Shown here: positions 954-49,538 of the stretch, in pieces
Layout: every line of letters starts with the position of its first letter
How positions within the stretch are numbered: the first letter of the stretch is position 1
IMG/VR virus record: IMGVR_UViG_3300023235_000014
Strand: one strand, 5' to 3'
Source of the DNA: a virus
Length of the DNA stretch: 64,000 bases
The notes under the pieces: generated by a model
The model's input: the letters and a program-made list of their open reading frames with translations, nothing else
Told to the model about the DNA's origin: nothing
Databases searched by the model: none
Translations under genes and position numbers: made by a program

Positions 954-3900
954 ATGGCCAGCCAGATTTTCAATTTTCCAGGTTTCTTCGACAGAGAAAT
1001 CGATCTTTCAGCACGGGAGGAAAGCCCTACGGGCACTCCAGCTGGCGTGATCGGTGGCTCCGAAAGAGGCCCAGCATTCGTACCATACACCGTTGGTTCA
1101 TTTGCTGACTACAGAACAATTTTCGGTGATCTTAACACAAGATACGCTGCTCCGTATGCGGCAGATAAATTTTTGGCGAATCGTTCAGCTCTGACTTTCA
1201 TCAGAATTTTGAACGCTGGCGCAAACGAGACTAGCACAGATATTGACACGACCCGTACACAAGGCACTGTCAAGAATGCTGGTTTTATAATCAGTGGTGC
1301 AGCTGAAGTTCCAGGTAACGAGGCCGTAGCTCAGGGCGTAGTCCAGTTTATCGTAGCAAATCATTACGTATCTGGCAATGAAGCCTATGGCTTGCCCATG
1401 TTTACCGATAATGACTCTTTTGCCACTGGGTCTGACGGTGCTTGGAACGGTTATGCCAATCTTGTGCGTGGCGTGATCTTTTGTGCAAGCGGAACCCGTA
1501 TGCAAATCCTTAGTCACGATCAGTACTACAGTGAAACTTCTGACGACGCTGCTACTCCTAGCGACACCACTCGTTACTTCAAGATTGCAATTTCTTCTTC
1601 CCTAGGCACTTCGTTTGGTAACGATGAGGGATTTGATGGTGTTAGAATCTTTACGGCTTCCCTGAATCCAACCGAAGACAACTATTTCGCTAAGCTTTTG
1701 AACACAGACCCAGAGAGGTTCGCCGATGAGAGACACTTGGTTTACGCCGATTACGCAGTGGATGCTGAAATTGCAACATTGGAGTCTGGAATTGACTCAG
1801 TTGCTATCGCTAGCGGCAGCGCTTCTACTTCTTCTACCTCTGGTGATTCTTCTCTGCCTTTCCTAAATGCATTCGGCAGATTTGACACACGTTACACCGC
1901 TCCTAAGTCACCATGGTTCATCTCACAGCCATACGGTGAGACCGAACATGACCTCTTCTACATTGAAGCAATCGATGATGGTGCATATGCCAACTCACGG
2001 ATCAAGGTATCCATCCTTGATATCCAGAAATCGGCCAACCCTAAGGACAAATATGGAACCTTTAACTTGGTTGTCCGTGATTTCTTTGACACAGACGTAG
2101 AACCACGAATCCTTGAGCAGTTCAGCAACATGACGCTCAATCCAGATTCGGACAACTACATCGGTAAAGTCATCGGAGATAAGAAGGCTCGCTTTAACTT
2201 CGATGCAGCGGATGTCTCAGATCGACGTTTGCTTACCACGGGCAAGTTCGCTAATCGTTCACGCAATGTCCGAGTAGTCATCTCTGACCAGGTGGCTAAA
2301 AAGGCAGTTCCTGCTGACGCTGTCCCATTCGGCTTCCGTGGTGTTGAAGTTCTTAACACCAACAGCGCTCTTGTAGACACCACAGGCTCAGCTGCTACTG
2401 ATCGCCTGTACCTCAGAAGTACTGGAACTCTTGATACGCATGGACGACTTCTAGGTGCCATTGTTCCTCCGATTCCACATCGATACAAGGTAACTCGTGG
2501 AGCTACTGACACCGATGGCTCACGTCTTGCAGGAGCACCAGGGACTACTGAAATCACTGATGGTCGTTACTACTGGGGTGTGAAGTTCACACGTAACAGC
2601 AATGCTCTCAACCCTAACGTCGTTGAACTAGAAAACAAGCTCATTAAATCCATGACTAAGTTCGCTGGGATTAGTAAGCTTGACATGTTGGTGACTGGCT
2701 CTCAAAAGGATACCTTCAATAACAACAAGTTTACGCTTGCCCGTGTTGCCCTGGGCAACGGAGCGTTGGCGGACATCACATCATCTGTAAACAAGCACAT
2801 GAAGGAAACAGTGTATTTCAGGAATGGTAGACCTGATGGCTTTGAGTACAAGATTATTGATCCAATGACTGATGACAGCCGCATTACTTTTGCAACTCTA
2901 TATCAGAAGGGTGCGACTGCTTCTGACTTCAACAAGTTCACCAACTTTACCAAATTCACTACGTTCCTTTATGGCGGTTTCGATGGGACTAACATCCTGG
3001 ATAAGAACGCTGCTACTTTCAACGACCGTTCAACATCTGCTGAAACACGTACGTCTGACGGTGAGATCGGAAATGCAGCAGCTACATTCACCTCACCAGG
3101 TCTCGCAAGCAATGTAAACGGCGCTGGAATCTCCAACTCCACTGTGGCCTCATACCGAGCAGCTTCCGACATCGTTACTGATGCAATCGCTTCGAACGTG
3201 AATATTGTGGCGACGCCAGGTCAGCGTGACCCACTCGTTACTGATTATGTCTCGGACGCTGTTCGTGACTTCGGCATTGCTTTCTATGTAATGGACATCC
3301 CGCTATATGACTCAGATATTGAGCGAATTTGGGATGATGAGACAAGTAAATATGTTGACGTTGAACAGACAGCAAATTCCTTTGAGCTTCGTGCTCTTGA
3401 CAATGAGTATGCTGGTGCCTACTTCCCAGATGTTGTCATTGAAGACATCGTAAACCGTCGTCGTGTGACGGTTCCTTCAACCGTCGGTGCCATTGCTGCA
3501 CTTGGCTTCAACGATAGAATCGCATATCCTTGGTTCGCCCCAGCTGGTTTCAACCGAGCTTCCCTTGACTTCGTTACGAAGACCAAGGTCAAGATCAAGC
3601 AACCAGAACGTGAGCGTCTTTTCGCAATCCACGTGAACCCAATCACAAAGTTCCCAGGCACCGCTGCCAATGTAATCTTCGCCCAAAATACACTTGAACA
3701 GGCTGAGTCAGCACTCGGCTCGATCAATGTTGTTCGAATGCTCAATGAGCTAAAGCGTCAGATTATCGATATTGGTAATCGCACAATCTGGGAGCAGATC
3801 ACCCCAACCATCTACACCGAGCTTGAGAAGTCATTCCGAAATGTTTTGAACACCATTACTTCACGTGCGGGTATCGAGCGTTACGATGTTGTTGTTGATG

Positions 3901-4034
3901 AAAGAAACAACACGAACGTTGACCGTGATAACAACAAGGTCAATGTTCGAATCGTCCTTGTACCAACCAGAGCAGTTGAGTTTATCGCTGTTGACTTCAT
4001 CATCACTCGCAGTGGAGTACAGTTCGCCAGCTAA
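954..4034 (+). CDS. Tail sheath protein, gp18-like (paralog A, 1026 aa)
   Basis: N-terminal 'GTPAGVIGGSERGPAFVP' and C-terminal 'PWFAPAGFNRASLDF' match the T4 gp18 sheath motifs ('GPAF', 'WMSPAGYNRG'). RBS AAAGGAAC 7 nt upstream of the ATG. Confidence 0.85.
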   Translation: MASQIFNFPGFFDREIDLSAREESPTGTPAGVIGGSERGPAFVPYTVGSFADYRTIFGDLNTRYAAPYAADKFLANRSALTFIRILNAGANETSTDIDTTRTQGTVKNAGFIISGAAEVPGNEAVAQGVVQFIVANHYVSGNEAYGLPMFTDNDSFATGSDGAWNGYANLVRGVIFCASGTRMQILSHDQYYSETSDDAATPSDTTRYFKIAISSSLGTSFGNDEGFDGVRIFTASLNPTEDNYFAKLLNTDPERFADERHLVYADYAVDAEIATLESGIDSVAIASGSASTSSTSGDSSLPFLNAFGRFDTRYTAPKSPWFISQPYGETEHDLFYIEAIDDGAYANSRIKVSILDIQKSANPKDKYGTFNLVVRDFFDTDVEPRILEQFSNMTLNPDSDNYIGKVIGDKKARFNFDAADVSDRRLLTTGKFANRSRNVRVVISDQVAKKAVPADAVPFGFRGVEVLNTNSALVDTTGSAATDRLYLRSTGTLDTHGRLLGAIVPPIPHRYKVTRGATDTDGSRLAGAPGTTEITDGRYYWGVKFTRNSNALNPNVVELENKLIKSMTKFAGISKLDMLVTGSQKDTFNNNKFTLARVALGNGALADITSSVNKHMKETVYFRNGRPDGFEYKIIDPMTDDSRITFATLYQKGATASDFNKFTNFTKFTTFLYGGFDGTNILDKNAATFNDRSTSAETRTSDGEIGNAAATFTSPGLASNVNGAGISNSTVASYRAASDIVTDAIASNVNIVATPGQRDPLVTDYVSDAVRDFGIAFYVMDIPLYDSDIERIWDDETSKYVDVEQTANSFELRALDNEYAGAYFPDVVIEDIVNRRRVTVPSTVGAIAALGFNDRIAYPWFAPAGFNRASLDFVTKTKVKIKQPERERLFAIHVNPITKFPGTAANVIFAQNTLEQAESALGSINVVRMLNELKRQIIDIGNRTIWEQITPTIYTELEKSFRNVLNTITSRAGIERYDVVVDERNNTNVDRDNNKVNVRIVLVPTRAVEFIAVDFIITRSGVQFAS

Positions 4035-4075: not shown

Positions 4076-5068
4076 ATGTGGTTAACAATGGAGTTAGAAA
4101 TGAAGAAAGAGTTCAAGGGGCACGCCAATGAAGGTGGCGTGTACCAAATCACAAATATAATCAACGGAAAAAAGTACGTTGGTTCTGCTAAAACATTCAA
4201 GACTAGAGCAGCTGGCCACGCCAGCTCGTTAAAGAACGGCAAACACCAAAACAAGCATCTGCAAGCAAGCTTCGACAAGCATGGCGCAGATGCTTTTTTG
4301 TTTGAGGTAATTGAAGTTGTTCCTGGCGACAGAGTCGCCAGGACAACAAGGGAGCAAGAGTTAATTGACGAACAACTTGGGAGTTGGGAGTCGTGCTTCA
4401 ATTTCAAAAAGAAAACGGTCTGCAAGGAAGGCCCGTGGTCAAAAACTCCGACGGAAACTCGGAAGAAAATATCCGAGTCAAGTAGGAAGATGTGGCAAAA
4501 CGATATTTTCAAAAAAAGAACCAGTAAGGCAATTAGCAAAGCTTTGCAAACACCAGAATCTAAAAAGTGTCGTTCAGAGAATTCCAAGGAAATGTGGCGC
4601 AAGCCTTCACACAGACAAAAACTTGCAAAAGTAATGAGAAAACATTCGACCAAACAAAAACTGACCTTGGCTAAGCATAGAAAAACAGCAACTGCAAATT
4701 CACGCAAAAAACGTGTAAAACATTATGGAAAAATTCTTGATCCGCTGGGCAGGATTCACGACGTAACAAACCTGGAAGAGTTTGCACGGAAGCACAATCT
4801 CGACCGATGCAACTTGCAGAAGGTATTTGAAGGCAGACATCCGTCATGCAAGGGTTGGCGAAAGTACGCTTTAGAACTTTGTGGGCTGCCGTACATACGG
4901 AACTTGAGCCATCAGGCAAAAGACTTTTTGATTGTCGACCCTCGTGGAAACACACACAAAGAAACAAACATCGCCCGCTTCGCCGCAAAACATGGGCTCA
5001 ATAAAGAAAATTTGGCAGCGGTAATAAGAGGCACTCGCAAGTCCCACAAAGGATGGACGCATGTTTAA
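4076..5068 (+). CDS. GIY-YIG homing endonuclease with NUMOD3-like repeats. The likely true start is the ATG at 4100, which is preceded by GGAG
   Basis: 'GGVYQITNIINGKKYVGSAKTFKTRAAGH...FEVIEVV' is a GIY-YIG core with conserved Arg/His/Glu. It is followed by repeated 'K.ISES.RK.WQN'-type basic helices. Inserted between the two sheath paralogs. Confidence 0.8.
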   Translation: MWLTMELEMKKEFKGHANEGGVYQITNIINGKKYVGSAKTFKTRAAGHASSLKNGKHQNKHLQASFDKHGADAFLFEVIEVVPGDRVARTTREQELIDEQLGSWESCFNFKKKTVCKEGPWSKTPTETRKKISESSRKMWQNDIFKKRTSKAISKALQTPESKKCRSENSKEMWRKPSHRQKLAKVMRKHSTKQKLTLAKHRKTATANSRKKRVKHYGKILDPLGRIHDVTNLEEFARKHNLDRCNLQKVFEGRHPSCKGWRKYALELCGLPYIRNLSHQAKDFLIVDPRGNTHKETNIARFAAKHGLNKENLAAVIRGTRKSHKGWTHV

Positions 5069-5165: not shown

Positions 5166-8100
5166 ATGACTACCATCAATTTCAAAAGCGCAGGTGTATC
5201 TGCCCGTGTTATTAACCTGACTGGCCCAACCGCCGTTCAACCAGTCGGTATTCCAGCTGGCGTTATTGGAACATCAGTAAAGGGACCTGCGTTTGTACCA
5301 ACTACTGTTGCAACCACTCAGGACTTTACCGTGGTCTTTGGAGCGCCAGCTGACGGTGCTGTCAACGGACCATTGGCGGTAGGTGAGTGGCTTCGTAATC
5401 AACAGGCCGCAACCTTCCTGCGTGTTCTTGGTGTAGGCCAGGCTAGACGTCGAGAGACTTCGGGCGATAACCAAGGTCGAGTTGTTGGTGCGGGTTTTGT
5501 CGTTGGTGGCAGGCAGCCATCTACTGATGGCGCCTTGGTTGATAATGCTTACGCAAACACAGGTGGACCCGAAGGACGTCTTTACTTTCTGAATGCATTT
5601 ATGTCCGAGGCAAACAGCTCTGGGCTTCTTACTTCTGCTGGCCTTTCAAGTGACGGCGTTCCGCTTGTTCGTGCTGTCCTAATGGCAGCTTCTGGAGTAA
5701 TTCTTCGACTTTCCTCTTCGATAACTGGAGTTGCCTCGACCGCTCCTGCTGCATCATTAGTCTCAACTGAGGCTACCGTTACTGGTACCATGCTAGGTGC
5801 AATAAATTTAAATGGCGGTCGTCAAGAATTTGTCCTTTTCCTAAATGGTCACAAGGGCTCGGATGTACTATACCCTCGTGTTATCACGGCATCTCTTGAC
5901 ATCGAAGCACCAAACTACCTTGGCCGTGTGCTAAACACCGACCCTCTCCTTATGGAGAAGGCGGGCCACGTACTTTACGCAGATTGGTCTGTCCACTCCA
6001 ACCTTGCAGTTGTGACTTCTTCAAATGCAGTATCAACTTTTGCAAGTGGCGTAAATCCAAGCATCGCTGTTGGTGTTGAGCCAGCTATTTTCCTTGCGAC
6101 TGGCTCTAATGCCAGAAACTCGGGTTCGGTCGTGGCCCCAAGTTTCGAAAACTTTGAAGACCGCTTCAAGACGCCCAAGTCTCCCTGGATCGTGTCACAG
6201 AAGTTTGGTGGCAAGCCTAAGAACCTTATCCGTATCCATACACTGAGCGATGGTGCCTACGAGAATGAACAAATCAAGTGGTCTATCGAGAACTTGACTC
6301 CATCCGTTTCAGACGCACAGCCTTACGGTACATTTGACCTACTTGTTCGTCGTTTCGACGACACTGACAAAAGGCGTGAAGTAACCGAAGCCTGGAGGAA
6401 CCTGTCTCTTAACCCAAGCTCAGACAACTATGTTGCACGAGTTATTGGTGACACACACGTGTTCTACAACTTCGAATCTGCCGAGGGTTCACAGAAGATT
6501 ACAGAAAATGGCGAATACCCTAACCGTTCTAGCCTGATCCGTGTTGAAGTCTCTAACCTTGTAGACAACCAAGAGGTTGATGACTCAGCCCTTCCAATGG
6601 GTTTCCGTGGAATCCCCCACTTGGTTACTTCGGGTACAACAGCCCTAGCACCACTTACTAGCGCCACCGCTTTTGATGGTATCTTTAGCTCTAGCGCTGA
6701 GCCTGCATACAACGTAGTGCAGATGCCAGTTCAGTTCCGTGACAACCTAAACATAGGCTCGTCGGCAGCCCAACGACCAGACAAGGGATTGTACTGGGGC
6801 ATTCAGTTTGAGCGCAAACTTACTGTGGCTGAGTCTAACTCGACCACCGAACCCGAGCGAAGCATCGCCGCCTTTACACGTTACTTCCCAGACTTCCAAA
6901 CAGCCTGGCAGAGTGTGCTCGTTTCTAATAACGAGGGTGTGGCTGACGTTTCAGGTTCGGTTTTGGATGCTGACCGCTTCAACAACAATCTGTTTACTCT
7001 TGAGAACGTCAGGATTGTTCAGACAGCTGCTGGTTTGGCTGACACTGTGTCTCTTGTTAGTTGGAGCTACATGAGACAAGGGAATATCACCACCAACAGC
7101 ACCTGGAGACCGCTCGCTTCGTCCGACCTTACAGACGCATCTGTACGTCAGGTAGCTAAGTTTAGTGGCATTATTCAAGGTGGTTTCGACGGTGTGCGTA
7201 TCTTTGATGAAGATACCTCTGATATTACCAACAAGGCAATCACCGAAGAGATGAACAACTCAAATCGTGGTACATCTGACGGTCCATCTGTCAAGTCTTA
7301 CGCAACTGCTCTTGAGATTATGTCTGATGATACAGAAACTGACATTCAGCTTCTTGCTATCCCAGGCATCCGTCACCCAATCATTACAGATAACGCTACT
7401 CTCAAGACTGAAGACCGCTTTGATGCCATGTACCTCATGGACATTGAGGAGTATGACACGCTCAATGCTCCATTTACAGGTTCAAGTGAACAAGACTTGT
7501 CGGTTCGTTTCACCGCAAACAACCATAGTGCTCGTGGCCTGAACTCTTCATTCGCTGCTGCGTACTTCCCTGACCTCATCGTACGAGACGCATTCAACAA
7601 CACTATCCGTCAGGTTCCACCGTCGGTAGCTGTTCTCGGTGCATTTGCACTCAATGATTCCATTGGATTCCCATGGTACGCACCAGCAGGTTTCGCCCGT
7701 GGCGCCCTACAGACAACTGAAGAGGCTTTCATCCCGCTTAACCGTGACAACATGAATGCCTTGCAGGATGTCAAAGTCAACCCGCTTGTTTCCTTTGCAG
7801 GTTCAGAAGGTGTAGTTGTCTGGGGTCAGCGCACTCTCCTCGGCAAGGACTCAGCTCTTGAGCGTGTAAATGTTCGTAGACTGCTTATCAGCCTTCGTCG
7901 ACAAGTCCGCCAGGTCGCCCGTCGCTTCATCTTCGAGCCAGGCCGTGAAGAAACCCTTGCAAGGTTTTCACAGCTTGTAAATCCAATCATGAAGAGGGTC
8001 CAAGACCAGAAGGGTGTTGAGCGCTTCTTGGTGAGAATCGATACCACAACCACCACTCAAACGGACGTTGAAAACCGTACCATTCGTGGTCAGATTTTCC

Positions 8101-8180
8101 TTGTCCCAACCAAGACCCTTGAGTTCTTGTCCATTGATTTCGTTGTAACCAACCAGGGTAACTTCGTCACCAGCGTATAG
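5166..8180 (+). CDS. Tail sheath protein, gp18-like (paralog B, 1004 aa)
   Basis: 'GIPAGVIGTSVKGPAFVP' and 'PWYAPAGFARGALQ' match sheath motifs. Collinear similarity to paralog A throughout, e.g. 'FKTPKSPWIVSQ' vs 'YTAPKSPWFISQ'. RBS GGAGAG. Confidence 0.85.
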   Translation: MTTINFKSAGVSARVINLTGPTAVQPVGIPAGVIGTSVKGPAFVPTTVATTQDFTVVFGAPADGAVNGPLAVGEWLRNQQAATFLRVLGVGQARRRETSGDNQGRVVGAGFVVGGRQPSTDGALVDNAYANTGGPEGRLYFLNAFMSEANSSGLLTSAGLSSDGVPLVRAVLMAASGVILRLSSSITGVASTAPAASLVSTEATVTGTMLGAINLNGGRQEFVLFLNGHKGSDVLYPRVITASLDIEAPNYLGRVLNTDPLLMEKAGHVLYADWSVHSNLAVVTSSNAVSTFASGVNPSIAVGVEPAIFLATGSNARNSGSVVAPSFENFEDRFKTPKSPWIVSQKFGGKPKNLIRIHTLSDGAYENEQIKWSIENLTPSVSDAQPYGTFDLLVRRFDDTDKRREVTEAWRNLSLNPSSDNYVARVIGDTHVFYNFESAEGSQKITENGEYPNRSSLIRVEVSNLVDNQEVDDSALPMGFRGIPHLVTSGTTALAPLTSATAFDGIFSSSAEPAYNVVQMPVQFRDNLNIGSSAAQRPDKGLYWGIQFERKLTVAESNSTTEPERSIAAFTRYFPDFQTAWQSVLVSNNEGVADVSGSVLDADRFNNNLFTLENVRIVQTAAGLADTVSLVSWSYMRQGNITTNSTWRPLASSDLTDASVRQVAKFSGIIQGGFDGVRIFDEDTSDITNKAITEEMNNSNRGTSDGPSVKSYATALEIMSDDTETDIQLLAIPGIRHPIITDNATLKTEDRFDAMYLMDIEEYDTLNAPFTGSSEQDLSVRFTANNHSARGLNSSFAAAYFPDLIVRDAFNNTIRQVPPSVAVLGAFALNDSIGFPWYAPAGFARGALQTTEEAFIPLNRDNMNALQDVKVNPLVSFAGSEGVVVWGQRTLLGKDSALERVNVRRLLISLRRQVRQVARRFIFEPGREETLARFSQLVNPIMKRVQDQKGVERFLVRIDTTTTTQTDVENRTIRGQIFLVPTKTLEFLSIDFVVTNQGNFVTSV

Positions 8181-8201
8181 GTCCAAACCTAAAGGAAATC
8201 C

Positions 8202-9455
8202 GTGAAGCTCACGAAAGTTCAACTAAAAGAGATGATTCGTCAGGCTGTTAGGCAACAGCTTGGCGAGTCGCCAATTGAAGAAACAGTATATATTGGTTCA
8301 ATCAAAAAGGGCATGGCGGCTGGAAAGGCTGCTGCGAACCGTGTTGATAGTCCTTCATACCGTTCTTCAAAAGGCGAAACCTGGGAAGAAGAGCTTGGCC
8401 GCATAGACAAGCAAGCTAAACTTAAAAGGGACATGGAACGACGATTTGCCTCCGCAGGTAAGTACTGGAAGAAGGTATTTGGTGAGGAGGCTAATGTTTA
8501 CTACATGCAAGCCCAAATTGATGTCGGCGGCCCATTTAGGGTGAATATCAAACTAGAAGAACGTGATTCTTTTGCCGAACAAATCTTTGTAGTGAGCCTA
8601 CTGAAAACAACCCAGACACTTGAAACGAAAGACTTCGGCATCGGCATCGGGGCCAAAGAAAATATCGCCCGCTACGTCAAGAAAATGAAGAAGAAGTTTC
8701 AACAGGGTGGACTAAGCGAAGGTCATATGGCTAAAAGCCTAAGGCTTATACTTAGAGAAAATGAAAACAGACCTATGAAAGTTAACAAAAGACAGTTACA
8801 AGAGATGGTTCGTTTGGCTATCCGCAAGCAGCTAAACGAGCGCCACGGCGTTTATTCCCCTGATGGCGGAATGTCTCAGAATGATATCGCAATCCACTTG
8901 GAAAAAGAACGTGAAAAGAAGCGTAAAAGTGATGACGTCAACAAGAAACGCCAGGCTACCAAGAAATCTGCTCGGGGCATGGAACTTGAATGCGGTCCAG
9001 ACATGGACCGTAGGCCCGACAGGAATAAAGAACCACGTAAGCTATCGGATTTATTTGCAGACGGCGACAGAGAGCTAGGAGAGGCCATGTACGAGCAATC
9101 TGGTGGTACCATGGATGACTTCTGTTCAGCTTATATTGAAGCAGCTCTTTGGAGCAGCACAGATGATTCAAGTGGCCAGCCTTTAGACGTGAACTACGAA
9201 TCTGCTGACATCTCCGAAGAGACTCTTAGAAAAATGCAATCTGATTGCGACAAGTTTCAGGAGCTTGCAGGTGAAATGATTGATGGGCGTGAAGAGAGGG
9301 CTGGACACGATTTCTGGCTAACCCGCAATGGACATGGTTCTGGCTTTGCTGATGGACAGTGGCCTGAATACGAAAAAGAGTTAACAGAACTTTCAAAAAA
9401 GTTTGGTGAGACATGGCTCATCGTTGGCGATAATAATGAAATTGAAGGAATGTAA
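8202..9455 (+). CDS. Putative internal head/packaged protein with two tandem modules, each beginning with the type-A propeptide (GTG start)
   Basis: N-terminal 'MKLTKVQLKEMIRQAVRQQLGE' and internal 'MKVNKRQLQEMVRLAIRKQLNE' (near nt 8777). RBS AAAGGAAA before the GTG. Confidence 0.6.
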   Translation: MKLTKVQLKEMIRQAVRQQLGESPIEETVYIGSIKKGMAAGKAAANRVDSPSYRSSKGETWEEELGRIDKQAKLKRDMERRFASAGKYWKKVFGEEANVYYMQAQIDVGGPFRVNIKLEERDSFAEQIFVVSLLKTTQTLETKDFGIGIGAKENIARYVKKMKKKFQQGGLSEGHMAKSLRLILRENENRPMKVNKRQLQEMVRLAIRKQLNERHGVYSPDGGMSQNDIAIHLEKEREKKRKSDDVNKKRQATKKSARGMELECGPDMDRRPDRNKEPRKLSDLFADGDRELGEAMYEQSGGTMDDFCSAYIEAALWSSTDDSSGQPLDVNYESADISEETLRKMQSDCDKFQELAGEMIDGREERAGHDFWLTRNGHGSGFADGQWPEYEKELTELSKKFGETWLIVGDNNEIEGM

Positions 9456-9457
9456 AA

Positions 9458-10125
9458 TGAATTTTGAACTAATATTGAAAGAGGGATTTGACACTGATGA
9501 TTCGGTTGTCAGGGAGCTGAAGATCTTCATCGACAATGATGGTGAGCTTTACCGTCAGCGCACAATGCCCATTATGAAGAACCTCGCACGAAAAATGCGA
9601 AAGGGCAACTACGATCCAAGCAAGGCAACCAAACTCTGGATGTACCTTGTAAATGATGGTGCCAAAAAATACGCCAAGGAATTTGGCGGCGATCCTAAGG
9701 GCTGGCATGAAATGTTCCCAAAGGCAATTCGTATGGCTGTAGCTCAAGAACTAGCTGATGAATTTCAAAGTGAGGTTGACGCTGGCGGGTACGATGTTGA
9801 GGAACTCTCAATGAGGGAAAACAAAGTTGTTCGTGTCTCAAAAAGTCAACTAAGAGAAATGGTCCGCAAGACTATCCGCAAACAGCTCAATGAGGCTGCT
9901 GGGTCCCGTGAGTGGGACTTACTTGAGAAAATTCGTGATGGTGGTGCAGATGACACCTCCATCCTTGAGGAACTCATGAGAGCCATGTCTTCAGTCGAAG
10001 CTACTCAAAACCTTGAGTGGATTGCACAAATGTGGGATGTCGAACTTGAGGGTGATGATGATGGCGAAGATGAAGCTTGGATGGAAGACGACGACCTTGA
10101 TGAGATCGTTGCTCCAGATTGGTAG
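9458..10125 (+). CDS. Putative packaged protein with an internal type-A propeptide; acidic C-terminus
   Basis: ATG at 9458 preceded by GAAGGAA. The ORF finder's start at 9403 overlaps the upstream gene. Internal 'VRVSKSQLREMVRKTIRKQLNEA'. Confidence 0.5.
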
Positions 10126-10131
10126 GAAAAT

Positions 10132-10566
10132 ATGAAAGTTGCTAAAAATCAACTTATACGAATGATTCGTGAGGCAGTTCGAGAGCAGCTAGACCCAAAC
10201 GATTCAGATGACAGGGGCGCTGTCCTGGCCAACTTACGCAGACGGCTTGATGGAGGTTCGAAGCTGCATGCTATCGGAGACGGGACATCGGACAACATTT
10301 ACGGGCTTGTGAAGGCCAACTCCTCTGATGAGGCTAGGACAGTAGCTCGTGAGGCTGGACTTGATGATTATGCAGTTGACGAGGTCAACAGCAACGTAGT
10401 CAGACGTCTTGAGAAGCAAGCTGCAAGCTATGCCAGGCGTCGCCAAGAGAGAAAAGCTGCCAAGTATACCAAAGATGCCAAATTAATTCAGGGGTTCTTG
10501 GATTCTGACAAAAACACCATTGACCTCGGCAACAGACCAATCATGACGGTTGACCTTGATCTCTGA
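10132..10566 (+). CDS. Putative packaged protein with type-A N-terminal propeptide
   Basis: 'MKVAKNQLIRMIREAVREQLDP'. Confidence 0.55.
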   Translation: MKVAKNQLIRMIREAVREQLDPNDSDDRGAVLANLRRRLDGGSKLHAIGDGTSDNIYGLVKANSSDEARTVAREAGLDDYAVDEVNSNVVRRLEKQAASYARRRQERKAAKYTKDAKLIQGFLDSDKNTIDLGNRPIMTVDLDL

Positions 10567-10574
10567 GATTTAAT

Positions 10575-10802
10575 GTGAAACTCACTAAAACACAATTGAA
10601 AGAGATGATCAAAGAGGCTGTGCAGAGTCAGCTTGATGAATCGGGAATTCTTGAACGTCGTGTTATGAAGCTTGATCGGTTTCGTAGTGAAGTAAATCTC
10701 TCTTCATATGAGCTTCTGGAGGATATCGTTGAAATGCTTGATGAGGACATGTGGCGTCAGGTAGTTATTGGTTTAAAAGACAAGTACGGATACAAGATCT
10801 GA
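10575..10802 (+). CDS. Small putative packaged protein with type-A propeptide (GTG start)
   Basis: 'MKLTKTQLKEMIKEAVQSQLDE'. Confidence 0.5.
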   Translation: MKLTKTQLKEMIKEAVQSQLDESGILERRVMKLDRFRSEVNLSSYELLEDIVEMLDEDMWRQVVIGLKDKYGYKI

Positions 10803-10859
10803 AAACGCCTTTTAGGTCCCTAATTTACTATAGGGGAAGTCGTTGCAACCAGGAATAAG

Positions 10860-11366
10860 ATGAAACTCAACAAAACACAACTCAAAAAAATCCTCAAAGA
10901 GGTAGTACGTGAACTAGTAGACGAGGGTGCGTTTGATAACGTTATTAAAGAAAGTGTTAGTCCAAGAGCTAATGTTGCCCGTCGACCTGCTGCAAATGAC
11001 TTTGCTGCCTCGTACGGACAAAGAAGTGAACCGATGAGCAATGATCATAGTGAGAGACAACAGGATAGTCTACGTGGTCAGGGCAGCAAGAATACACGAC
11101 TCCAAGAGTTAACCCGCCGAGCAGCAGCAGAAGCATCTGGTGGTGACCCACAACAAGCTAAAATGATGGAAGCGATTTTCGCTGACACAGCCGCCAGTAC
11201 ACTTCAGCGGCAATTAGGTTACGAAAGCCATGGCTCAGCGGGGCTTTATAGCGGAGAACCAGACCCAGAGCAAGAACGCCAAGACATGGCAGCTTTGGAC
11301 GTACTTAGTGGTGGAAAAGGCGCACAACATTGGGCTGCATTAGCATTTGGTAAGTACAATCAGTAG
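10860..11366 (+). CDS. Putative packaged protein with type-A propeptide
   Basis: 'MKLNKTQLKKILKEVVRELVDE'. RBS AGGAATAAG. Confidence 0.55.
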   Translation: MKLNKTQLKKILKEVVRELVDEGAFDNVIKESVSPRANVARRPAANDFAASYGQRSEPMSNDHSERQQDSLRGQGSKNTRLQELTRRAAAEASGGDPQQAKMMEAIFADTAASTLQRQLGYESHGSAGLYSGEPDPEQERQDMAALDVLSGGKGAQHWAALAFGKYNQ

Positions 11367-11413
11367 GAACTCAATAGTTCTACATATTTACTACCAAGAA
11401 GGAAGGTTCAATA

Positions 11414-11911
11414 ATGCCAACACACAAACAACTAGTAGTAGAAGTACCAAGCACCACACGTGCTAACGGTTCTTCTGACACAGAAGCACGCAAGACTTCA
11501 TACCCAGGGTCCCCACTTTACAACAATCTGGGCGGCGCTCCGTCATACCTAACAGACGCAGCAGTCGAGACGTTCTTTGAGGGCGAGGTTATCGAAGGCG
11601 TGGTAGATGATGGCGGTCACACCTTTGGAACATTCAATCGTGATTACGCTGACGCACCAAATCTTGAAGAAGTTGTAACTGGTGGTGGTGGACTTCCTGG
11701 CTCCCCATACGCCCCTAACGTTGCGTCTCCACCCGAGGGACAAAACCCAGCAGACATCCCAGCTGAGGGTGCTGCCGTAACTGTGGCTGCACGAGGCGGC
11801 GGCGGACCTTTCCAGGGAAGCACGCTTACAAGCCCACACGAGACATCCGTGAATGTTGCTCGCCAGAAGATTGGCACGCTCATGTTCGGTAACTCAGAAC
11901 CAACAGCCTAA
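11414..11911 (+). CDS. Hypothetical Gly/Pro-rich protein
   Basis: ORF with RBS GAAGGAAGG. No recognisable domain. Confidence 0.4.
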   Translation: MPTHKQLVVEVPSTTRANGSSDTEARKTSYPGSPLYNNLGGAPSYLTDAAVETFFEGEVIEGVVDDGGHTFGTFNRDYADAPNLEEVVTGGGGLPGSPYAPNVASPPEGQNPADIPAEGAAVTVAARGGGGPFQGSTLTSPHETSVNVARQKIGTLMFGNSEPTA

Positions 11912-11930
11912 ACCTAATAAGGAATAACAA

Positions 11931-14135
11931 ATGACAGACCTGTTTACAGAAGCGCTGAAAGACGCACAAAAGATCCGTGAGATTGCTGAGAAGGACGCCA
12001 AAAACCGTCTTGTAGAGGCTCTTACGCCTTACATCAAGAAGGTGATCGCTAAGGAATCAGTTGGTGACAGTGACTTCTACTTTGAGCAGGTTGAGGACGA
12101 TGAGCTTGACCTAGAAGCACAGCAACCTGCGCCTGCGGCTCAGCCAGCCCCAGCCCAAGGTGCACCAGCACCAGCACCAACCACAGCTCCAACCGCAACT
12201 GTTCCAACTGCCGACCCAGCTCCTATCGAGGACCCTGGGGCGCTTGGGGATGTTGGTGTGGACGCAAGTATGCCTGATGAAGAGGGTAAAATCGTTGTTG
12301 ACTTCGATGACCTTTTCGTTGATGCAGATACCGATCAAGTAACCATTACACCACCAGGTGCTGGTGGTGAAGAAATGGGTGCGGCGCCCGTGGCAGCAAC
12401 TGGCGAAGAGCCTATGCTTGACCTCGCACCAGAAGGCTCTGAGCTTGCTCCTGCCCCAGCAGGCGAAGCAGTTCCTGTCGAAGGTGAAGAGGAAGACCCA
12501 CTTGACCTTTCAACAGAAGCAATTACTTTCAAGGAGTATCAGAGAGTTCTATCAGATCTTTCTGAACGAGTTGATAGAGCACTTTATTCCAATCACGTGA
12601 CAGATATTACACGTGAATCGCTTAAACAAAGACTTTTCGACCTATTGGAGGCCATTGATGGCATGCGTGGTCGTGGAAGCATTTCAAACAAACAAGCTCG
12701 TCTCAACGAAAACAAGTTGGAATTTTTGTTCTTAAAACTGAAAGAGGCGAGTTTGCACAATAGTTACTCATTGAGTAGCGAAACAAAAGGTACCAACAAC
12801 ATGAAGACTCTCAAAGAATATGCAGCACAGCTTTTCGAGGAAGACGAAAACCTCGCAAAAGATTCGGCCAGCACTGGCGACAGCGGCATGCCAGTAGATG
12901 ACGAATACTCTGAGCATGCAGCTGACGTCTCTGGTGTTGATCCAAAACTTGGAAAACCAGAAGACATCAGGGTCCACCAGGACCGACACACTCAAGAGGC
13001 AGATGCCCTTGAGGACACTGACAATCCCGAGGAAATGCCCTGGGATGAAGGTGAGCCTGGCTTAAAAGAAAATAGTGCAGACGCAGACACCGATGCAAAC
13101 GATGACGTAGCAGAGGGTGCAGCTGGATTTGGTGACACAAGAGAAGAACCAACAGCTGAGTTTGAAGTCGACGACGCAGAACTTGCGGAAGCAGTACGCT
13201 CCATCCGCAAAGATAGTATCAAGAAGAAATTGGCCGCTCTCCGTGAGGCAGAGGACAAGGACAAGGCATTCGAAGTTGATGCATCAGAAGATTACCCAGA
13301 TCCTGGCCCAGAAGGCGGTGAGGATCCTTCACATGAGCACCTAAAGGAGGGCGCAGGAATGATGGAAATGGACATGGACGGCGATGAAGAGCTTGAAGTA
13401 GTTGACGACATGGCACTTGACAGTGACCTAGACGATGCAGCTGACCTCGTACTTTCCGTAGACCTCCCACCTGAGGTGGAAGCAGAACTAGCTGAACTTG
13501 GTCTTGATGACCTTGATGTTGATGTCACCCTCAACGTTAGCTCCGATGATGAGCTTGATGATGAGCTTGATGATGAGCTTGATGATGAGCTTGATGATGA
13601 GCTTGATGATGAGCTTGATGATGAGCTTGATGATGAGGAGGACGAAGTTCTCCAGGATGACATGGAAGAAATGGCAATGGAGAGTAAGAGATCAGCACAC
13701 AGAGCACGCTTTCTTGAAAAGAAGCTTCGTCGTGCCAAAAAGATTCTTGAGGCCAAGAACAGAGAACTAGCATCCGTGAAGGGCCAGTTGGTAGAGACCA
13801 ACCTCTTCACCAGCAAGGCTGTGTACTACAGCAAGTTCCTTCACAGGGCTCTAAACGAAAGTGCTCTTACCAAGAAGGCTCTACAGCAAATTGTTGAGCA
13901 CCTTGATAGGGGTCGTACGGTTGCCGAAACAAAGGCAATCTACAAAAAGATTGAGCGCAAGCTCAACGAACACAATAACAAAGCTTCCCGCAAATTGGGC
14001 GGATCATCCTCGACGGTTACTCGACCAGGGAGCGCAAGCTTGAATGAGAGCAAGAACTCTTCTTCAGGCGAACATCCAGAAACTCAAACAGCTTCTCGTT
14101 GGCAGGTACTTGCTGGCATTAAAAAGGGCGAGTAA
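11931..14135 (+). CDS. Prohead scaffold/core-like protein (gp22-like by position). Very acidic, with a Pro/Ala-rich linker and an (ELDD)n repeat
   Basis: 734 aa, extremely acidic and helical, with an 'APAPAQ' low-complexity stretch and eight ELDD repeats. Lies immediately upstream of the gp23-like MCP, matching the T4 gene 22 to 23 order. Confidence 0.5.
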   Translation: MTDLFTEALKDAQKIREIAEKDAKNRLVEALTPYIKKVIAKESVGDSDFYFEQVEDDELDLEAQQPAPAAQPAPAQGAPAPAPTTAPTATVPTADPAPIEDPGALGDVGVDASMPDEEGKIVVDFDDLFVDADTDQVTITPPGAGGEEMGAAPVAATGEEPMLDLAPEGSELAPAPAGEAVPVEGEEEDPLDLSTEAITFKEYQRVLSDLSERVDRALYSNHVTDITRESLKQRLFDLLEAIDGMRGRGSISNKQARLNENKLEFLFLKLKEASLHNSYSLSSETKGTNNMKTLKEYAAQLFEEDENLAKDSASTGDSGMPVDDEYSEHAADVSGVDPKLGKPEDIRVHQDRHTQEADALEDTDNPEEMPWDEGEPGLKENSADADTDANDDVAEGAAGFGDTREEPTAEFEVDDAELAEAVRSIRKDSIKKKLAALREAEDKDKAFEVDASEDYPDPGPEGGEDPSHEHLKEGAGMMEMDMDGDEELEVVDDMALDSDLDDAADLVLSVDLPPEVEAELAELGLDDLDVDVTLNVSSDDELDDELDDELDDELDDELDDELDDELDDEEDEVLQDDMEEMAMESKRSAHRARFLEKKLRRAKKILEAKNRELASVKGQLVETNLFTSKAVYYSKFLHRALNESALTKKALQQIVEHLDRGRTVAETKAIYKKIERKLNEHNNKASRKLGGSSSTVTRPGSASLNESKNSSSGEHPETQTASRWQVLAGIKKGE
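13545..13652 (+). repeat. Coding tandem repeat: 8 copies of the 12-nt unit gatgatgagctt, plus one degenerate unit
   Basis: Perfect 12-nt tandem units visible directly. They encode (DDEL)n inside the scaffold-like gene. Confidence 0.9.
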
Positions 14136-14188
14136 CGGAAAATAGCTTTTAGCAAAATACTTAGAAAAGATTTGAGGAGAAAAATCAA

Positions 14189-16111
14189 ATGAAGACTTTC
14201 ACACTGTCACAGCTCGCAGAGGGCGTAAAAAGACGTTCCCTTGGCGCAGACTCACCACGTCTGTCCAAGAAATGGAACGCCACAGGACTCCTAGAGGGCC
14301 TAAAGGGAATGAACCGAGATAACATGTCTCGTCTACTTGAGAACCAGGCAGCTGAGTTGCTCAAGGAGACAAACGCATTGTCCCTCGGAGGAGCTTCCCT
14401 AACCTCTAGCGGAAAAATCGCTGGTTTCACCAACGTCGCTTTCCCAATCGTACGCCGTGTATTCGCAGGCTTGATTGCAAATGAAGTTGTATCGGTTCAG
14501 CCAATGAGCCTACCAACTGGTTTGCTTTTCTACCTCGATTACACTTATGGTTCATCGGTTGGTGGAGACGCAGGTACATCAGCGAACCAGTTCTCAACCA
14601 CATCCGTGGTTAGCCCATCAACTTACACGAGTCAGGACTCCGTATACAACAACCCACGTGGTGTTGGCGTACGTTCAGGTTCTCTCGCAACTGGTGGCCA
14701 GTACGACCTTGCAGGTCATGGCTACTCGAAGGTGCACAAGCAGAGCCGTTGGCTCTCAGGTTCCGCAGCATCTGTCGGCTACTGGGCAACTGGTTCCGTA
14801 TGGACCGCAGGCGCAGCCGTAGCTACTTCCGCAGACTTCACAGGCTTCAATGCTCGTTACGCAATGTACGATGCAAACGTTGAACGTGATCTCGCAGATA
14901 ACCTTTTGGACTACTCGTTCGCATTCGTGCCAACATCTGAGTTCACTGGCAAAATCACTGGTACCGACCTTACCAACGTCAACCAAATCAGTATAACTGG
15001 TTTCGGTAGTGTTACCAACTCCGCAGTGGAGTGGGGCGAGAAGTACCAGGGTGGACGTGGCGTCCTCAACCTACGCAAGCTAACGCAGCGTGGTGATTGG
15101 GATGTTGCCAATGGTGTCTTTACACCAAGCCCACTCGGTGGTTCACACCTTATGTTCGTTGTGCGTCTTGGTAACGCAGGTACCCCACCAGCTCCAGATG
15201 GCACTGTGGGTAACGCAGTAACTGCTTCCGCAGCTATCGCTGACGCACTTTCGGTCAACACTGACGGTTCAACCCTTACCATCCCAAGCTTCGAGTCTGA
15301 CTTCGCAGTCGATTCTAGCCCACGAATCCCAGAGGTTGATATCCGAATCGAATCCACCAGCGTAACGGCTCAGACCCGTAAGCTGCGTGCTCGTTGGTCG
15401 CCAGAAATGGCTCAGGACCTTACGGCCTTCTACTCAATCGATGTAGAAGTCGAGCTTACGAACATTCTCTCTGAGATGATCACACTCGACATTGACCGTG
15501 AGATTTTGAACGACCTTCTCACACAGGCAGGTGCTGCTAACCTCTTCTGGAGCCGTGCTCCAGGTAAGATTGTGAACAAGTTCACAGGCGCAGAGGCTCT
15601 ACAGTCCAGCACCCTATCCCCAGGCCCAATGGCATTCGTAAACATCCAGGAGTGGTACCAGACTCTGCTTGAGACCATCACTGATGCTGCGAACACCATC
15701 CACCGTAAGACACTCCGTGGTTCAGGTAACTTCATGGTTACCAGCCCAGATGTCTGCACCATCCTTGAGCACCTAGTTGCATACAAGCCTTCCTACAGAG
15801 TAGACGCTGACGGACAGGTTCGTGACAACATGGTAATCGGCGCCGAGGCAGTTGGTACCCTTAACAACCGTTACACGGTTTACAAGGACCCTTACTTCCC
15901 AAGCAACAAGGTTCTAGTTGGCCTAAAGGGCAACACCTTCCTTGAATCAGGATACATCTACGCTCCGTACGTACCACTTATCCTTACTCCTGTCATCTAT
16001 GCACAGGAAGATTTCACGCCACGTAAGGGTGTCATGACTCGTTACGGCAAGAAGATGGTTAGAAATGACTTTTATGCAACCGTGACAGTTCTAGACATGG
16101 GTCTCATCTGA
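14189..16111 (+). CDS. Major capsid protein, T4 gp23-like, with an N-terminal propeptide
   Basis: 'FPIVRRVFAGLIANEVVSVQPMSLPTGLLFYLDYTYG' vs T4 'AVMGMVRRAIPNLIAFDICGVQPMNSPTGQVFALRAVYG'. 'TRKLRARWSPEMAQDL' vs 'SRQLKAAYSIELAQDL'. C-terminal 'YIYAPYVPL' vs 'GIYYAPYVAL'. RBS GAGGAG. Confidence 0.9.
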   Translation: MKTFTLSQLAEGVKRRSLGADSPRLSKKWNATGLLEGLKGMNRDNMSRLLENQAAELLKETNALSLGGASLTSSGKIAGFTNVAFPIVRRVFAGLIANEVVSVQPMSLPTGLLFYLDYTYGSSVGGDAGTSANQFSTTSVVSPSTYTSQDSVYNNPRGVGVRSGSLATGGQYDLAGHGYSKVHKQSRWLSGSAASVGYWATGSVWTAGAAVATSADFTGFNARYAMYDANVERDLADNLLDYSFAFVPTSEFTGKITGTDLTNVNQISITGFGSVTNSAVEWGEKYQGGRGVLNLRKLTQRGDWDVANGVFTPSPLGGSHLMFVVRLGNAGTPPAPDGTVGNAVTASAAIADALSVNTDGSTLTIPSFESDFAVDSSPRIPEVDIRIESTSVTAQTRKLRARWSPEMAQDLTAFYSIDVEVELTNILSEMITLDIDREILNDLLTQAGAANLFWSRAPGKIVNKFTGAEALQSSTLSPGPMAFVNIQEWYQTLLETITDAANTIHRKTLRGSGNFMVTSPDVCTILEHLVAYKPSYRVDADGQVRDNMVIGAEAVGTLNNRYTVYKDPYFPSNKVLVGLKGNTFLESGYIYAPYVPLILTPVIYAQEDFTPRKGVMTRYGKKMVRNDFYATVTVLDMGLI

Positions 16112-16140
16112 CCTGATTAGCTAACAGCTAAAACACACGA

Positions 16141-16172
16141 GAAAGCCGCCTTTTTGGCGGCTTTTCTCTTTT
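16141..16172 (+). terminator. Rho-independent terminator after the MCP gene
   Basis: Hairpin AAAGCCGCC-TTTTT-GGCGGCTTT followed by a T-run. Confidence 0.75.
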
Positions 16173-16310
16173 AACTGGTGAACACCGCCAACAGAGTGTG
16201 CCATACTATTTGTATGGTCGAGCTGTTGAGGGTGAACAGATTTCAAAAAGAAGTATTGGTGTTATCATACCCTTGCATGACTTTGGCGACTCAAGTAAGG
16301 GTGTAATGAC

Positions 16311-17768
16311 ATGCGCTGTCAAGTCTGCAATAAGGATTTTGAATCCAAGAGAAGGTTAGCGAGCCATCTACAAAAAAAGCATAGCATGGATTCATGTACG
16401 TACACATCAAAATATTTGTGTGAGAATTCCCGAACACCTGTTTGTGCCTTTGAGGACTGCAAACAAGAACCCAGATACGTTTCTTTTACGTTCAAAAGAT
16501 TTTGCAAGGAGCATTCCAAACATGCAATGAAAAGTGGGGGGCGCCGTGGGGGGCAAGCTCAGGCTTGGAATAAAGGGAAAACAAAATTCGACGACAAAAG
16601 AATACTCAAGCAAGCAATCTCAATGTTAGGAAACGGGAATCACTTTTATGGCCAACAACACTCTAACCAAACGATTGAAACACTAAAGATTAGTTCGAAA
16701 ATTACCCAGGGTGAATTCAAAGCCAGGCTAAAGGCTAGAGAGTCGGATTTCATCATCTCAACAAATTTTTCATACGAAGAATATGAATCTAGGCAATACC
16801 AAAAATTGCCAGTTGAGTGTACCAGGTGTCACCGCACCTCCTACAAAACGCTTCAGTCCCTAGAGCGTGGAACCCTTTGTAAGTTTTGCTACCCTTTCAC
16901 AGTCTCAAGAGGCGAACTAGAACTTGGCAATTACGTTGAGTCTAAAATTGACCATGACGTTGTTAGAAACGATCGGACTGTCATTGCACCTTATGAGCTG
17001 GATATTTATGTCCCTAAATTGCACTTGGCAATTGAATACCACGGAGTTTATTGGCATATGGACAAAGGCCAGCCTGGGTTTGACAAGAAGCTCCACTACA
17101 AGAAGCACCTGCACGCTAAAAACAAAGGAATCAAACTTCTTCAATTTTACTCTAATCAATGGGAGCAACAATCCGAGCTTGTAAAGTCAATGATTGATAA
17201 CCAACTGGGACTTAATGCGAAAAAGGTGGGAGCCAGGACCTTGCAAATAACAATGCTTGATTCGAAAGCAGCAAAAGCTTTTTTCACTAAAAATCATTTA
17301 CACGGATGGTGCAGAGCAAAAGCCACGTTTGCCCTAACTGACAAAGAAACAAACGAAGTACTTTCTGCGCTGTCGCTACGAAGCCCGATGCATAAGGTCT
17401 ACAAAGATTCTTTGGAAATTGCCAGGTTCGCTACTAGGATGAACACTACGGTAGTAGGAGGCTTTAGTAAACTACTGTCATGTGTCAAAAAGTATACTAA
17501 GAGTCAACAGCTCCATACTATCATCTCGTACGCAGACTTATTACATGGGACAGGCCGAGTTTACGATTTAGCCGGCTTTGACTATGTCAAACACACGGGT
17601 ATCAATTATTGGTACACAGACGGCGTTCAGCTCTTCAACCGTTTCAGGTATAAAGCCGAGGCAAACAAGAGTGAGAAGGAAGTTGCTAAAGCACAGAACG
17701 TCCAGCGTATATACGGATGTGGTAACTCACTTTACAAACTAGCTCTAAAGGTAGAAGACGATGCATGA
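16311..17768 (+). CDS. Homing-endonuclease-like protein: N-terminal C2H2 zinc finger(s), NUMOD-like segment, and a Vsr-like PD-(D/E)xK nuclease domain
   Basis: 'CQVCNKDFESKRRLASHLQKKH' (C2H2). 'YELDIYVPKLHLAIEYHGVYWH' resembles the Vsr 'PD...AIFVDGCFWH' catalytic motif. Confidence 0.5.
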   Translation: MRCQVCNKDFESKRRLASHLQKKHSMDSCTYTSKYLCENSRTPVCAFEDCKQEPRYVSFTFKRFCKEHSKHAMKSGGRRGGQAQAWNKGKTKFDDKRILKQAISMLGNGNHFYGQQHSNQTIETLKISSKITQGEFKARLKARESDFIISTNFSYEEYESRQYQKLPVECTRCHRTSYKTLQSLERGTLCKFCYPFTVSRGELELGNYVESKIDHDVVRNDRTVIAPYELDIYVPKLHLAIEYHGVYWHMDKGQPGFDKKLHYKKHLHAKNKGIKLLQFYSNQWEQQSELVKSMIDNQLGLNAKKVGARTLQITMLDSKAAKAFFTKNHLHGWCRAKATFALTDKETNEVLSALSLRSPMHKVYKDSLEIARFATRMNTTVVGGFSKLLSCVKKYTKSQQLHTIISYADLLHGTGRVYDLAGFDYVKHTGINYWYTDGVQLFNRFRYKAEANKSEKEVAKAQNVQRIYGCGNSLYKLALKVEDDA

Positions 17769-49136: not shown

Positions 49137-49538
49137 ATGAAAATAACAAGCAAACAACTCAAAGAGATGATTCGCAAGGCTGTCCGTGAGCAACTAAGCG
49201 AACAGGCACCTGTGTGGGGCTCACAAAATACACCAAAAGGCCTGGCGGGCTTCGCTGGGAAGACAAGCACACAGACTTTTCAGTCCAATGCAGAAAAAGC
49301 TAAAAAGACTGCCGCACAAAAGGCAGCTGAAAAACAAGCAGGTACTGGTGAGGACTTTGGATCGGACAAGACTTTACCTAAGGGTAAGGTTGGGGCTGCC
49401 AATCGCAAAAAGCTTGAGCAATCCAAGAAGTTGCAAAATTTAAAGAAACAAGTGTACTATGAAATTGATCAAGCTAGCACAGACCCTGAGAAGTTGCAGG
49501 CAGTACTTGATTACCTCCGAAAGGACCAGGCCAACTAA
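49137..49538 (+). CDS. Lys-rich protein with type-A propeptide
   Basis: 'MKITSKQLKEMIRKAVREQLSE'. Confidence 0.55.
   Translation: MKITSKQLKEMIRKAVREQLSEQAPVWGSQNTPKGLAGFAGKTSTQTFQSNAEKAKKTAAQKAAEKQAGTGEDFGSDKTLPKGKVGAANRKKLEQSKKLQNLKKQVYYEIDQASTDPEKLQAVLDYLRKDQAN

Follow-up and report, generated by a model that had tools for sequence, protein, structure and literature searches.

A recurrent N-terminal leader in an uncultured giant T4-like phage as a candidate capsid-targeting propeptide

Introduction

In bacteriophage T4, the capsid-targeting sequence (CTS) is an N-terminal peptide of ~10 residues on the internal proteins IPII and IPIII that targets even foreign proteins to the core and is removed by gp21 (PMC3012670, PMC9958956, PMC5694885). 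The sorting of proteins into the T4 scaffolding core is still called mysterious (PMC9958956). The gp53/gp54 ejection-protein paralogs of SPN3US/phiKZ, two giant phages, likewise have conserved N-terminal propeptides, interpreted as CTS-like and cleaved after Glu, most of which exceed 100 residues and follow the motif [S/A/G]-x-E (PMC5694885). In this study, a 22-residue N-terminal leader (type A) carried by a cluster of small proteins at positions 8202-11366 of IMG/VR record IMGVR_UViG_3300023235_000014 was compared with these systems. Only one short CTS has been characterized so far, and the leader would represent an independent and much more widespread family.

C-terminal capsid-binding tails are common to the scaffold and protease proteins of HK97-fold viruses, such as the P22 scaffold and the herpesvirus scaffold and protease; such tails bear on a second leader class in the same genome. 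The stretch analyzed here, referred to as the window, comprises 64,000 nucleotides, placed by exact protein look-ups at ~62.8-126.8 kb of a 284,850-bp metagenomic contig (ENA ERZ27315719, k141_17111), and belongs to a giant, uncultured and distant T4-like myophage. No DNA-level match to the window was found among public phage records. Among deposited phages, the best match of its capsid protein is to that of a 484-kb uncultured phage (37% identity); Flavobacterium phage immuto, Microcystis phage Mel-JY01 and Rhodothermus phage RM378 come next.

From the comparisons described below, the leader appears to apply the T4 principle of a capsid-targeting propeptide in a variant form that is widespread, has a traceable evolutionary origin and differs in sequence from the T4 CTS. 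It probably targets proteins to the prohead, where the prohead protease would remove it.

Results

Leader copies in the window

The leader has the consensus K-[LVI]-x-K-x-Q-L-x-x-M-[IV]-[RK]-x-A-[VI]-R-x-Q-L-x-E. A six-frame search of the window with a hidden Markov model (HMM) of its copies gave exactly seven matches, with E values of 1e-9 to 1e-13 (next best E=0.3). To control for circularity, a second HMM was built from 191 non-window metagenomic copies only, and it recovered the same seven copies (E values of 6.5e-13 to 4.5e-8). Five of these head open reading frames (ORFs), namely those starting at 8202, 10132, 10575, 10860 and 49137, and the other two (8775 and 9829) are internal.

8202-8267, + strand: leader copy 1, VKLTKVQLKEMIRQAVRQQLGE, N-terminus of the 417-residue ORF 8202-9455 (GTG start); E=2.8e-11 with the window HMM and 2e-9 with the independent HMM
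8775-8840, + strand: leader copy 2, MKVNKRQLQEMVRLAIRKQLNE, internal, residues 192-213 of ORF 8202-9455
9829-9894, + strand: leader copy 3, VRVSKSQLREMVRKTIRKQLNE, internal in ORF 9457-10125
10132-10197, + strand: leader copy 4, MKVAKNQLIRMIREAVREQLDP, N-terminus of ORF 10132-10566, without the terminal Glu
10575-10640, + strand: leader copy 5, VKLTKTQLKEMIKEAVQSQLDE, N-terminus of the 75-residue ORF 10575-10802; ortholog at 6286-6537 of the related locus L001
10860-10925, + strand: leader copy 6, MKLNKTQLKKILKEVVRELVDE, followed by G, N-terminus of the core-type gene 10860-11366
49137-49202, + strand: leader copy 7, MKITSKQLKEMIRKAVREQLSE, N-terminus of ORF 49137-49538, distant from the head module

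A preliminary description of the locus had five consecutive genes beginning with the peptide, two of them (8202 and 9458) with a second, internal copy. Four of the five do begin with it, but ORF 9457-10125 starts MNFELILKEG and lacks an N-terminal leader, and its copy at 9829 is its only one; the second copy in the 8202 ORF, at 8775, is confirmed. The description had also assigned the leader to more distant genes. That at 49137 is significant with both HMMs, whereas the candidate at 45025, although alignable from end to end, falls short of significance (E=3.4 with the independent HMM), and those at 48415, 28038 and 34849 went undetected by the independent HMM. The position of the cluster beside a scaffold-like gene (11931-14135) and a gp23 gene (14189-16111) was described correctly. 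A strict [LI]-x-E ending, previously attributed to every copy, is found in five of the seven; the copy at 10132 ends in L-D-P and that at 10860 in V-D-E.

Synonymous differences separate 105 of the 210 codon pairs that encode shared residues in different copies, against 60% expected for independent codon choice. Because the codons are near synonymous saturation, the constraint acts on the peptide, as had been proposed. This bears directly on the idea that it is a nucleic-acid signal that has been conserved, for instance a translation-initiation region or a regulatory RNA, or that the copies are alike through very recent duplication or gene conversion. The A-rich 5' ends of the copies would suit such a signal, as would a perfect 16-bp hairpin in the coding sequence of copy 8202 (near 8254-8269, within 8182-8270; minimum free energy -30.7 kcal/mol, z=-4.7). 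However, half of the identical-residue codons differ synonymously, the other three of the four copies that were folded show no structure beyond shuffled controls, two copies lie inside ORFs and an independent protein HMM finds all seven, by which this explanation is largely refuted and barely credible.

The leader is basic in six of the seven copies (net charge +1.5 to +4.7). Neither it nor the sequences that it heads (hereafter cargos) gave a Pfam or NCBIfam match, and the PHROG matches were to families of unknown function only: phrog_1915 on the C-terminal domain of the 8202 ORF and, weakly (E=3.9e-4), phrog_1352 on the 75-residue ORF.

A single-copy leader gene in related phages

The last gene of the cluster differs from the others in having recognizable orthologs at a fixed place in related genomes.

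10860-11366, + strand: prohead-core-type gene with the leader, an IFADTA box in the middle and HWAALAF at the C-terminus

The comparison set comprised 80 IMG/VR loci with a capsid protein 53-88% identical to that of the window. An iterated HMM located a single-copy ortholog of the 10860 gene in ~40 of the 80, ~3.3 kb upstream of the gene for the major capsid protein (MCP), and nearly every locus with enough upstream sequence holds one. The orthologs start MK(L/I)(T/S)+xxLKxIVKECLVEILAEG and have two further motifs in common, IFADTAxTTL in the middle and S(K/R)WAxLAF at the C-terminus. Their leader ends in [LI]-x-E-G, although the window copy ends in V-D-E, and both E22 and G23 at the leader end are at least 90% conserved across 31 orthologs. 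In 48 loci, a gp21-type protease, detected by tblastn with the annotated prohead protease of phage immuto as the query, ends a few bases upstream of the ortholog; the proteases of the relatives carry the Pfam domain PF03420, Peptidase S77, and the S77 protease of the relative L002 lies at 5771-6382. The gene order in the relatives is portal, a gene of ~295 codons, protease, leader gene, MPTH gene, scaffold and MCP, in which the 10860-type gene is a small gene inside the portal-protease-scaffold-MCP block.

A degenerate DNA scan of IMG/VR for QLKEMIRE extended this arrangement to more distant contigs with portal identities near 40%, which have one to three leader-headed small genes directly after the protease. 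Most relatives have one copy, and several copies are present only in L007 (three), the closest relative L001 (four to five) and the window (seven). On this comparative evidence, the 10860 gene is the probable single-copy ancestor of the leader.

The same evidence can be set against a reading in which the leader is a general N-terminal helix unrelated to the capsid, serving in nucleic-acid binding, docking elsewhere or as a stability or expression tag, with the proximity to head genes being coincidental. Such a helix would agree with the basic charge of the leader and with the leader genes outside head modules, and the link to the capsid does rest on comparison. Coincidence is nevertheless hard to reconcile with the strict placement of the ancestral gene beside the protease, scaffold and MCP genes, which persists across deep divergence, with the conserved E-G at the leader end and with the identity of a second leader, described below, to the C-terminal tail of the scaffold. 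We therefore regard the general helix as highly unlikely.

The leader as a portable unit in metagenomes

When 1.84 billion cluster representatives were searched exhaustively with HMMER, using a profile made from window sequences only and a threshold of E<=1e-3, 174 leader proteins were found. They are known from metagenomes only, and the contigs that encode them are, where context exists, T4-like phage contigs. Leader statistics and cargo clustering were performed on the best 150 of the 174. The leader lies at residues 1-4 in 125 of these 150 proteins, and two or three copies are present in 50. The motif [LIVM]-x-E occurs at fixed columns in 115 of 201 copies. After masking of the leader, the cargos fall into 110 clusters without mutual BLASTP similarity; their isoelectric points are mixed (60% acidic, 29% basic), and none of the 150 proteins contains a Pfam domain. 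Many of the leader genes are located far from head modules, as are 49137 in the window and those of L124 and L125.

Internal copies are directly preceded by Met in 41 of 76 cases and by Val or Ile in 19 more; Met at this position is expected if the proteins were fused from leader-headed genes. ORF 8202-9455 provides an example within the window. Its second half is a separate leader-headed gene in L001 (5196-5831), and a diverged homolog, P0125, keeps both leader copies. Judged by these gene layouts, the ORF is a fusion of two leader-plus-cargo units, the junction of which is marked by the copy at 8775. The homologs P0151 and P0180 of the 9457 ORF keep its layout of domain, leader and small domain, and the small module behind its internal leader directly follows an N-terminal leader in P0137, P0138 and P0174. 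Another small domain, GD(I/V)VLTGKFKNKRT.VK.IGKD.LGQPT.NGK, was observed before or after type A leaders in P0158, P0189 and P0251; a domain of the GD(I/V)VLTGKFKNKRT type is also present in the window at 34343-34837.

Neither the leader motif strings nor a curated family or paper describing the leader was found in the literature and family searches. A protein of Microcystis phage Mel-JY01, the only match of the leader consensus among 50,697 phage records, was considered as a carrier and rejected, as the match was C-terminal and at chance level (E=6); a literature search found no published paper on this phage.

Cleavage site and protease

The N-terminal region of the MCP aligns with the propeptide of T4 gp23. 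At the position at which T4 gp23 is cut (FLTE65↓AEIGG, where the arrow marks the cut), the whole clade keeps LL(K/R)E↓xNALSxGG, such that the MCP propeptide has [LIM]-x-E at the T4-equivalent cleavage position. The corresponding feature of the window is as follows.

14360-14368, + strand: predicted MCP maturation site L-K-E60↓T, from alignment to T4 gp23

The density of [LI]-x-E is 2.6-9.3 per 100 residues in the scaffold-like protein and in three of the five cluster ORFs (8202, 9457 and 10575), compared with 0.2-0.7 in the sheath, baseplate and tail-fibre-like proteins. As the tripeptide is common overall, this richness is weak support for a T4-like specificity. Together with the MCP alignment, it suggests that the protease of the clade has a T4-like specificity.

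The richness in [LI]-x-E resembles that of the scaffold, and it could also be read as a sign that the leader proteins are extra scaffold or core proteins like gp67 and gp68 of T4, with the leader acting as an assembly or oligomerization segment; they would then be degraded and expelled at maturation and nothing would be delivered to the host. The location of the ancestral copy in a conserved head-module gene with a scaffold-like tail (S[KR]WAxLAF, compared with SRWQxLAGI in the scaffold) agrees with this explanation, as do the 60% of cargos that are acidic and the lack of detected effector domains in them. However, there are 110 unrelated cargo clusters and many leader genes distant from head modules (49137, L124 and L125), the variety of the cargos is more like the hyper-variable internal-protein repertoire of T4 than a structural requirement, and the expansion is lineage-specific, with seven copies here versus one in most relatives. 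An additional set of core proteins is an unlikely explanation, but still one to be reckoned with.

With regard to targeting and removal of the leader by a T4-type protease, as the preliminary description proposed, all of the comparative tests that were run fit the proposal, but the protease of the window genome itself was not located in the window or within 10 kb on either side of it, and several other results also weigh against the proposal. A tblastn search with the immuto protease gave no match to a gp21-type protease in the 64-kb window or in L083, and no Peptidase S77 was found in the 10 kb upstream or the 10 kb downstream of the window on the source contig. The portal-protease block of the relatives is replaced by sheath genes in the window lineage. 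Two of the seven leader copies lack a canonical cleavage site (L-D-P and V-D-E), and [LI]-x-E is common in Glu/Leu-rich proteins, with 1.4 occurrences per 100 residues across the window. The leader does not significantly exceed shuffled controls in hydrophobic moment, the measure taken of its amphipathicity. The leader HMM gave negative bit scores on T4 IPI, IPII, IPIII, gp22, gp67 and gp68, and a comparison of the 10860 family with gp67 and gp68 by hhalign with a 31-sequence profile gave a probability of 0.1, which indicates no homology. No recognizable effector domains were found in the cargos, and a tblastn search of 50,697 phage records with the leader consensus found no cultured phage that carries it.

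Two protease clusters, P0076 and P0074, were considered as the protease of the window genome; both come from other phages, in which the gene order is the standard one.

A second leader class

A second recurrent leader, type B, with the motif (K/R)RWQxLAGI(L)xE, was found in nine ORFs of the window.

21707, 25585, 25958, 34550 (internal), 35823, 42878, 43596, 43985 and 49971 (- strand): type B copies

The type B motif is the extreme C-terminus of the scaffold-like protein, SRWQVLAGIKKGE. An RWxxLAGI C-terminus is present in 28 of 30 related scaffolds and in the scaffold of phage immuto, and the proteases of the relatives end in a similar ...NEILGIKK tail. The C-terminal S[KR]WAxLAF of the 10860 family also resembles the SRWQxLAGI of the scaffold. 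Both leader classes thus resemble copied ends of essential core proteins, since type A is the N-terminus of the 10860 protein and type B the C-terminus of the scaffold. A comparable relation may be read from the T4 record, in which the CTS of IPII/IPIII (MKTYQEFIAEA) resembles the N-terminus of gp22 (MLKEQLIAEA); this is our own reading of the record and not a claim from the literature.

We tentatively extend these observations to a generalization that, on balance, we hold to be doubtful: that a large uncultured T4-like clade uses terminus mimicry as a portable addressing code to load dozens of ORFan cargos, including polyprotein-like concatenations resolved by the protease, with type A mimicking a core-protein N-terminus and type B the C-terminal tail of the scaffold and, similarly, of the protease. 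The docking sites of the two classes may differ.

The domain at 34343-34837 mentioned above precedes the internal type B copy.

Organization of the head module

All of the genes of the module lie on the + strand, in the order sheath 1, GIY-YIG gene, sheath 2, leader cluster 8202-11366, 165-residue gene, scaffold-like gene and MCP.

954-4034, + strand: tail-sheath paralog 1
4076-5068, + strand: GIY-YIG homing-endonuclease-like gene, between the two sheath genes
5166-8180, + strand: tail-sheath paralog 2
11414-11911, + strand: conserved 165-residue 'MPTHKQL' gene, between core gene 10860 and the scaffold, at the same position in relatives
11931-14135, + strand: acidic scaffold-like protein, net charge -107; its C-terminal SRWQVLAGIKKGE at 14094-14132 is the type B motif
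14189-16111, + strand: gp23-type MCP (Pfam Gp23, 1.6e-79)
16141-16165, + strand: intrinsic-terminator-like hairpin just after the MCP gene

The two sheath paralogs are divergent (29% identity over the full length, E=8e-121), and the pair occupies, in the window lineage, the site of the portal-protease block of the relatives. Searches of Pfam, PHROGs and other curated families gave no match for the 165-residue MPTHKQL gene. The N- and C-termini of the scaffold-like protein align to the phage immuto protein encoded directly upstream of the immuto MCP. Within the scaffold gene, a run of at least eight exact DDEL/DELD repeats at 13480-13600 gives rise to long mirror ORFs on the complementary strand.

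From sheath 2 through the MCP gene, the intergenic gaps are at most 57 nucleotides, and the hairpin at 16141-16165 is the sole strong + strand terminator within 5200-17000. Sheath 2, the leader genes, the scaffold gene and the MCP gene probably form an operon that ends at this hairpin; because the gaps are this short and the only strong terminator follows the MCP gene, the leader cluster is likely to be co-transcribed with late head genes. No match to the T4 late promoter, TATAAATA, was found in the window. The window contains six occurrences of the heptamer CTATTTA, a possible promoter element; five of them (at 5083, 32949, 36285, 42849 and 44977) are within 100 nucleotides upstream of gene starts, where the heptamer is enriched. 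None of the five genes that it precedes belongs to the leader cluster.

Directly after the MCP gene, the region 16311-19806 encodes a Mom-like protein and a protein in which a TnsA-like endonuclease is fused to a DNA methylase. These genes look like mobile or DNA-modification insertions into the head module.

Other genes of the window

The genes at 28038-29234 and 34849-35598 are paralogs of each other (E=3e-18) with an N-terminal motif of their own, consisting of a shared helix followed by EAPxDAPFGxYL. No homologs of 28038 were found in 5.8 billion proteins, and the AlphaFold2 model, with a predicted local distance difference test score (pLDDT) of 35, was unusable. An assignment of both as Alt-like ADP-ribosyltransferases, from an R-S-E motif tentatively picked out by eye, was rejected because there was no Pfam support even at E=10. 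The neighbour of 34849, ORF 32964-34337, has GNAT and weak ART-PolyVal matches.

Three further genes, all on the - strand, were noted.

38184-40922, - strand: 912-residue protein that matches the shoulder domain of the major vault protein (PF11978, 6.7e-24) and, more weakly, Vault_3 and SPFH/Band 7, unusual for a phage
41012-42028, - strand: glutamine-synthetase-like gene (Gln-synt_C, 9.7e-19) adjoining the vault-like gene
45392-47512, - strand: actin-like 'Volactin' (PF25216, 7.2e-59), split by an intein that contains Hint and LAGLIDADG domains

Discussion

Proposed mechanism

Comparison with the relatives indicates that the leader started at the N-terminus of the 10860 family, a conserved small protein of the head module, the gene of which lies, in the relatives, between the S77 protease and the scaffold and gp23 genes. 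The basic N-terminal leader would anchor this protein within the scaffolding core, perhaps by contact with the acidic scaffold or with other leader copies; an electrostatic contact is plausible between the basic leader and the scaffold, with its net charge of -107. The window lineage has copied the leader onto unrelated small ORFans, and leader-plus-cargo units have been fused head to tail, as the gene layouts described above show. Leader-bearing cargos would enter the prohead by the same contact. After assembly of the shell, the protease would cut behind the Glu of [LI]-x-E (E↓G in the ancestor), which would both free the cargo inside the head and split the fused proteins into their units.

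Two fates can be envisaged for the freed cargo: it may be kept and injected, like IPI-III and Alt of T4, or be degraded and expelled, like gp67 and gp68. That the cargos are ejected proteins is a real possibility, to which we give somewhat less than even belief.

If the proposal is true, it provides a sequence rule to predict head-packaged, and possibly injected, proteins in uncultured jumbo phages. Most of the proteins predicted in this manner are ORFans, which could be anti-defence or host-takeover factors. The leaders would also offer new packaging tags for the engineering of phage capsids.

Comparison with known systems

As in the SPN3US/phiKZ system, a conserved N-terminal sequence, here proposed to be CTS-like, is found on diverse proteins. 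Unlike in that system, the leader is short (22 residues), has Leu at P3 and is attached to unrelated cargos rather than to paralogs.

The likeness to HK97-fold tails concerns the second leader class. The scaffold C-terminus RWQxLAGIKK resembles the NEILGIKK of the protease, and the same motif heads other ORFs as the type B leader. The difference is that the type B motif has been moved to the N-terminus of the cargo, and its binding to the shell is putative.

The 10860 family occupies a niche equivalent to that of T4 gp67/gp68, as both comprise small proteins encoded beside the protease and scaffold genes; in T4 both gp67 and gp68 are cut by gp21, gp67 for example at ...FLIE↓GEE. Unlike gp67 and gp68, the genes of which precede the protease gene in T4, the 10860-family gene follows the protease gene in the relatives, and the family has an IFADTA box and a WAxLAF tail of its own.

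The closest comparison is with the T4 CTS itself, which appears in the T4 record as the sequence MKTYQEFIAE↓A shared by IPII and IPIII; IPI and Alt also have propeptides that gp21 removes. In both cases a short N-terminal peptide is carried by otherwise unrelated small proteins of a T4-type phage, the peptide ends in [LI]-x-E followed by a small residue, and a gp21-type protease is present in the clade. As for the T4 internal proteins, the set of cargos is hyper-variable and their genes are partly dispersed. The leader differs from the T4 CTS in its length and charge (22 residues and basic, versus ~10 residues, MKTYQEFIAE), in its derivation from a conserved core gene beside the protease and in its many more copies. 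It further differs in being accompanied by a second leader class in the same genome and in forming tandem leader-plus-cargo fusions, which are undescribed for T4.

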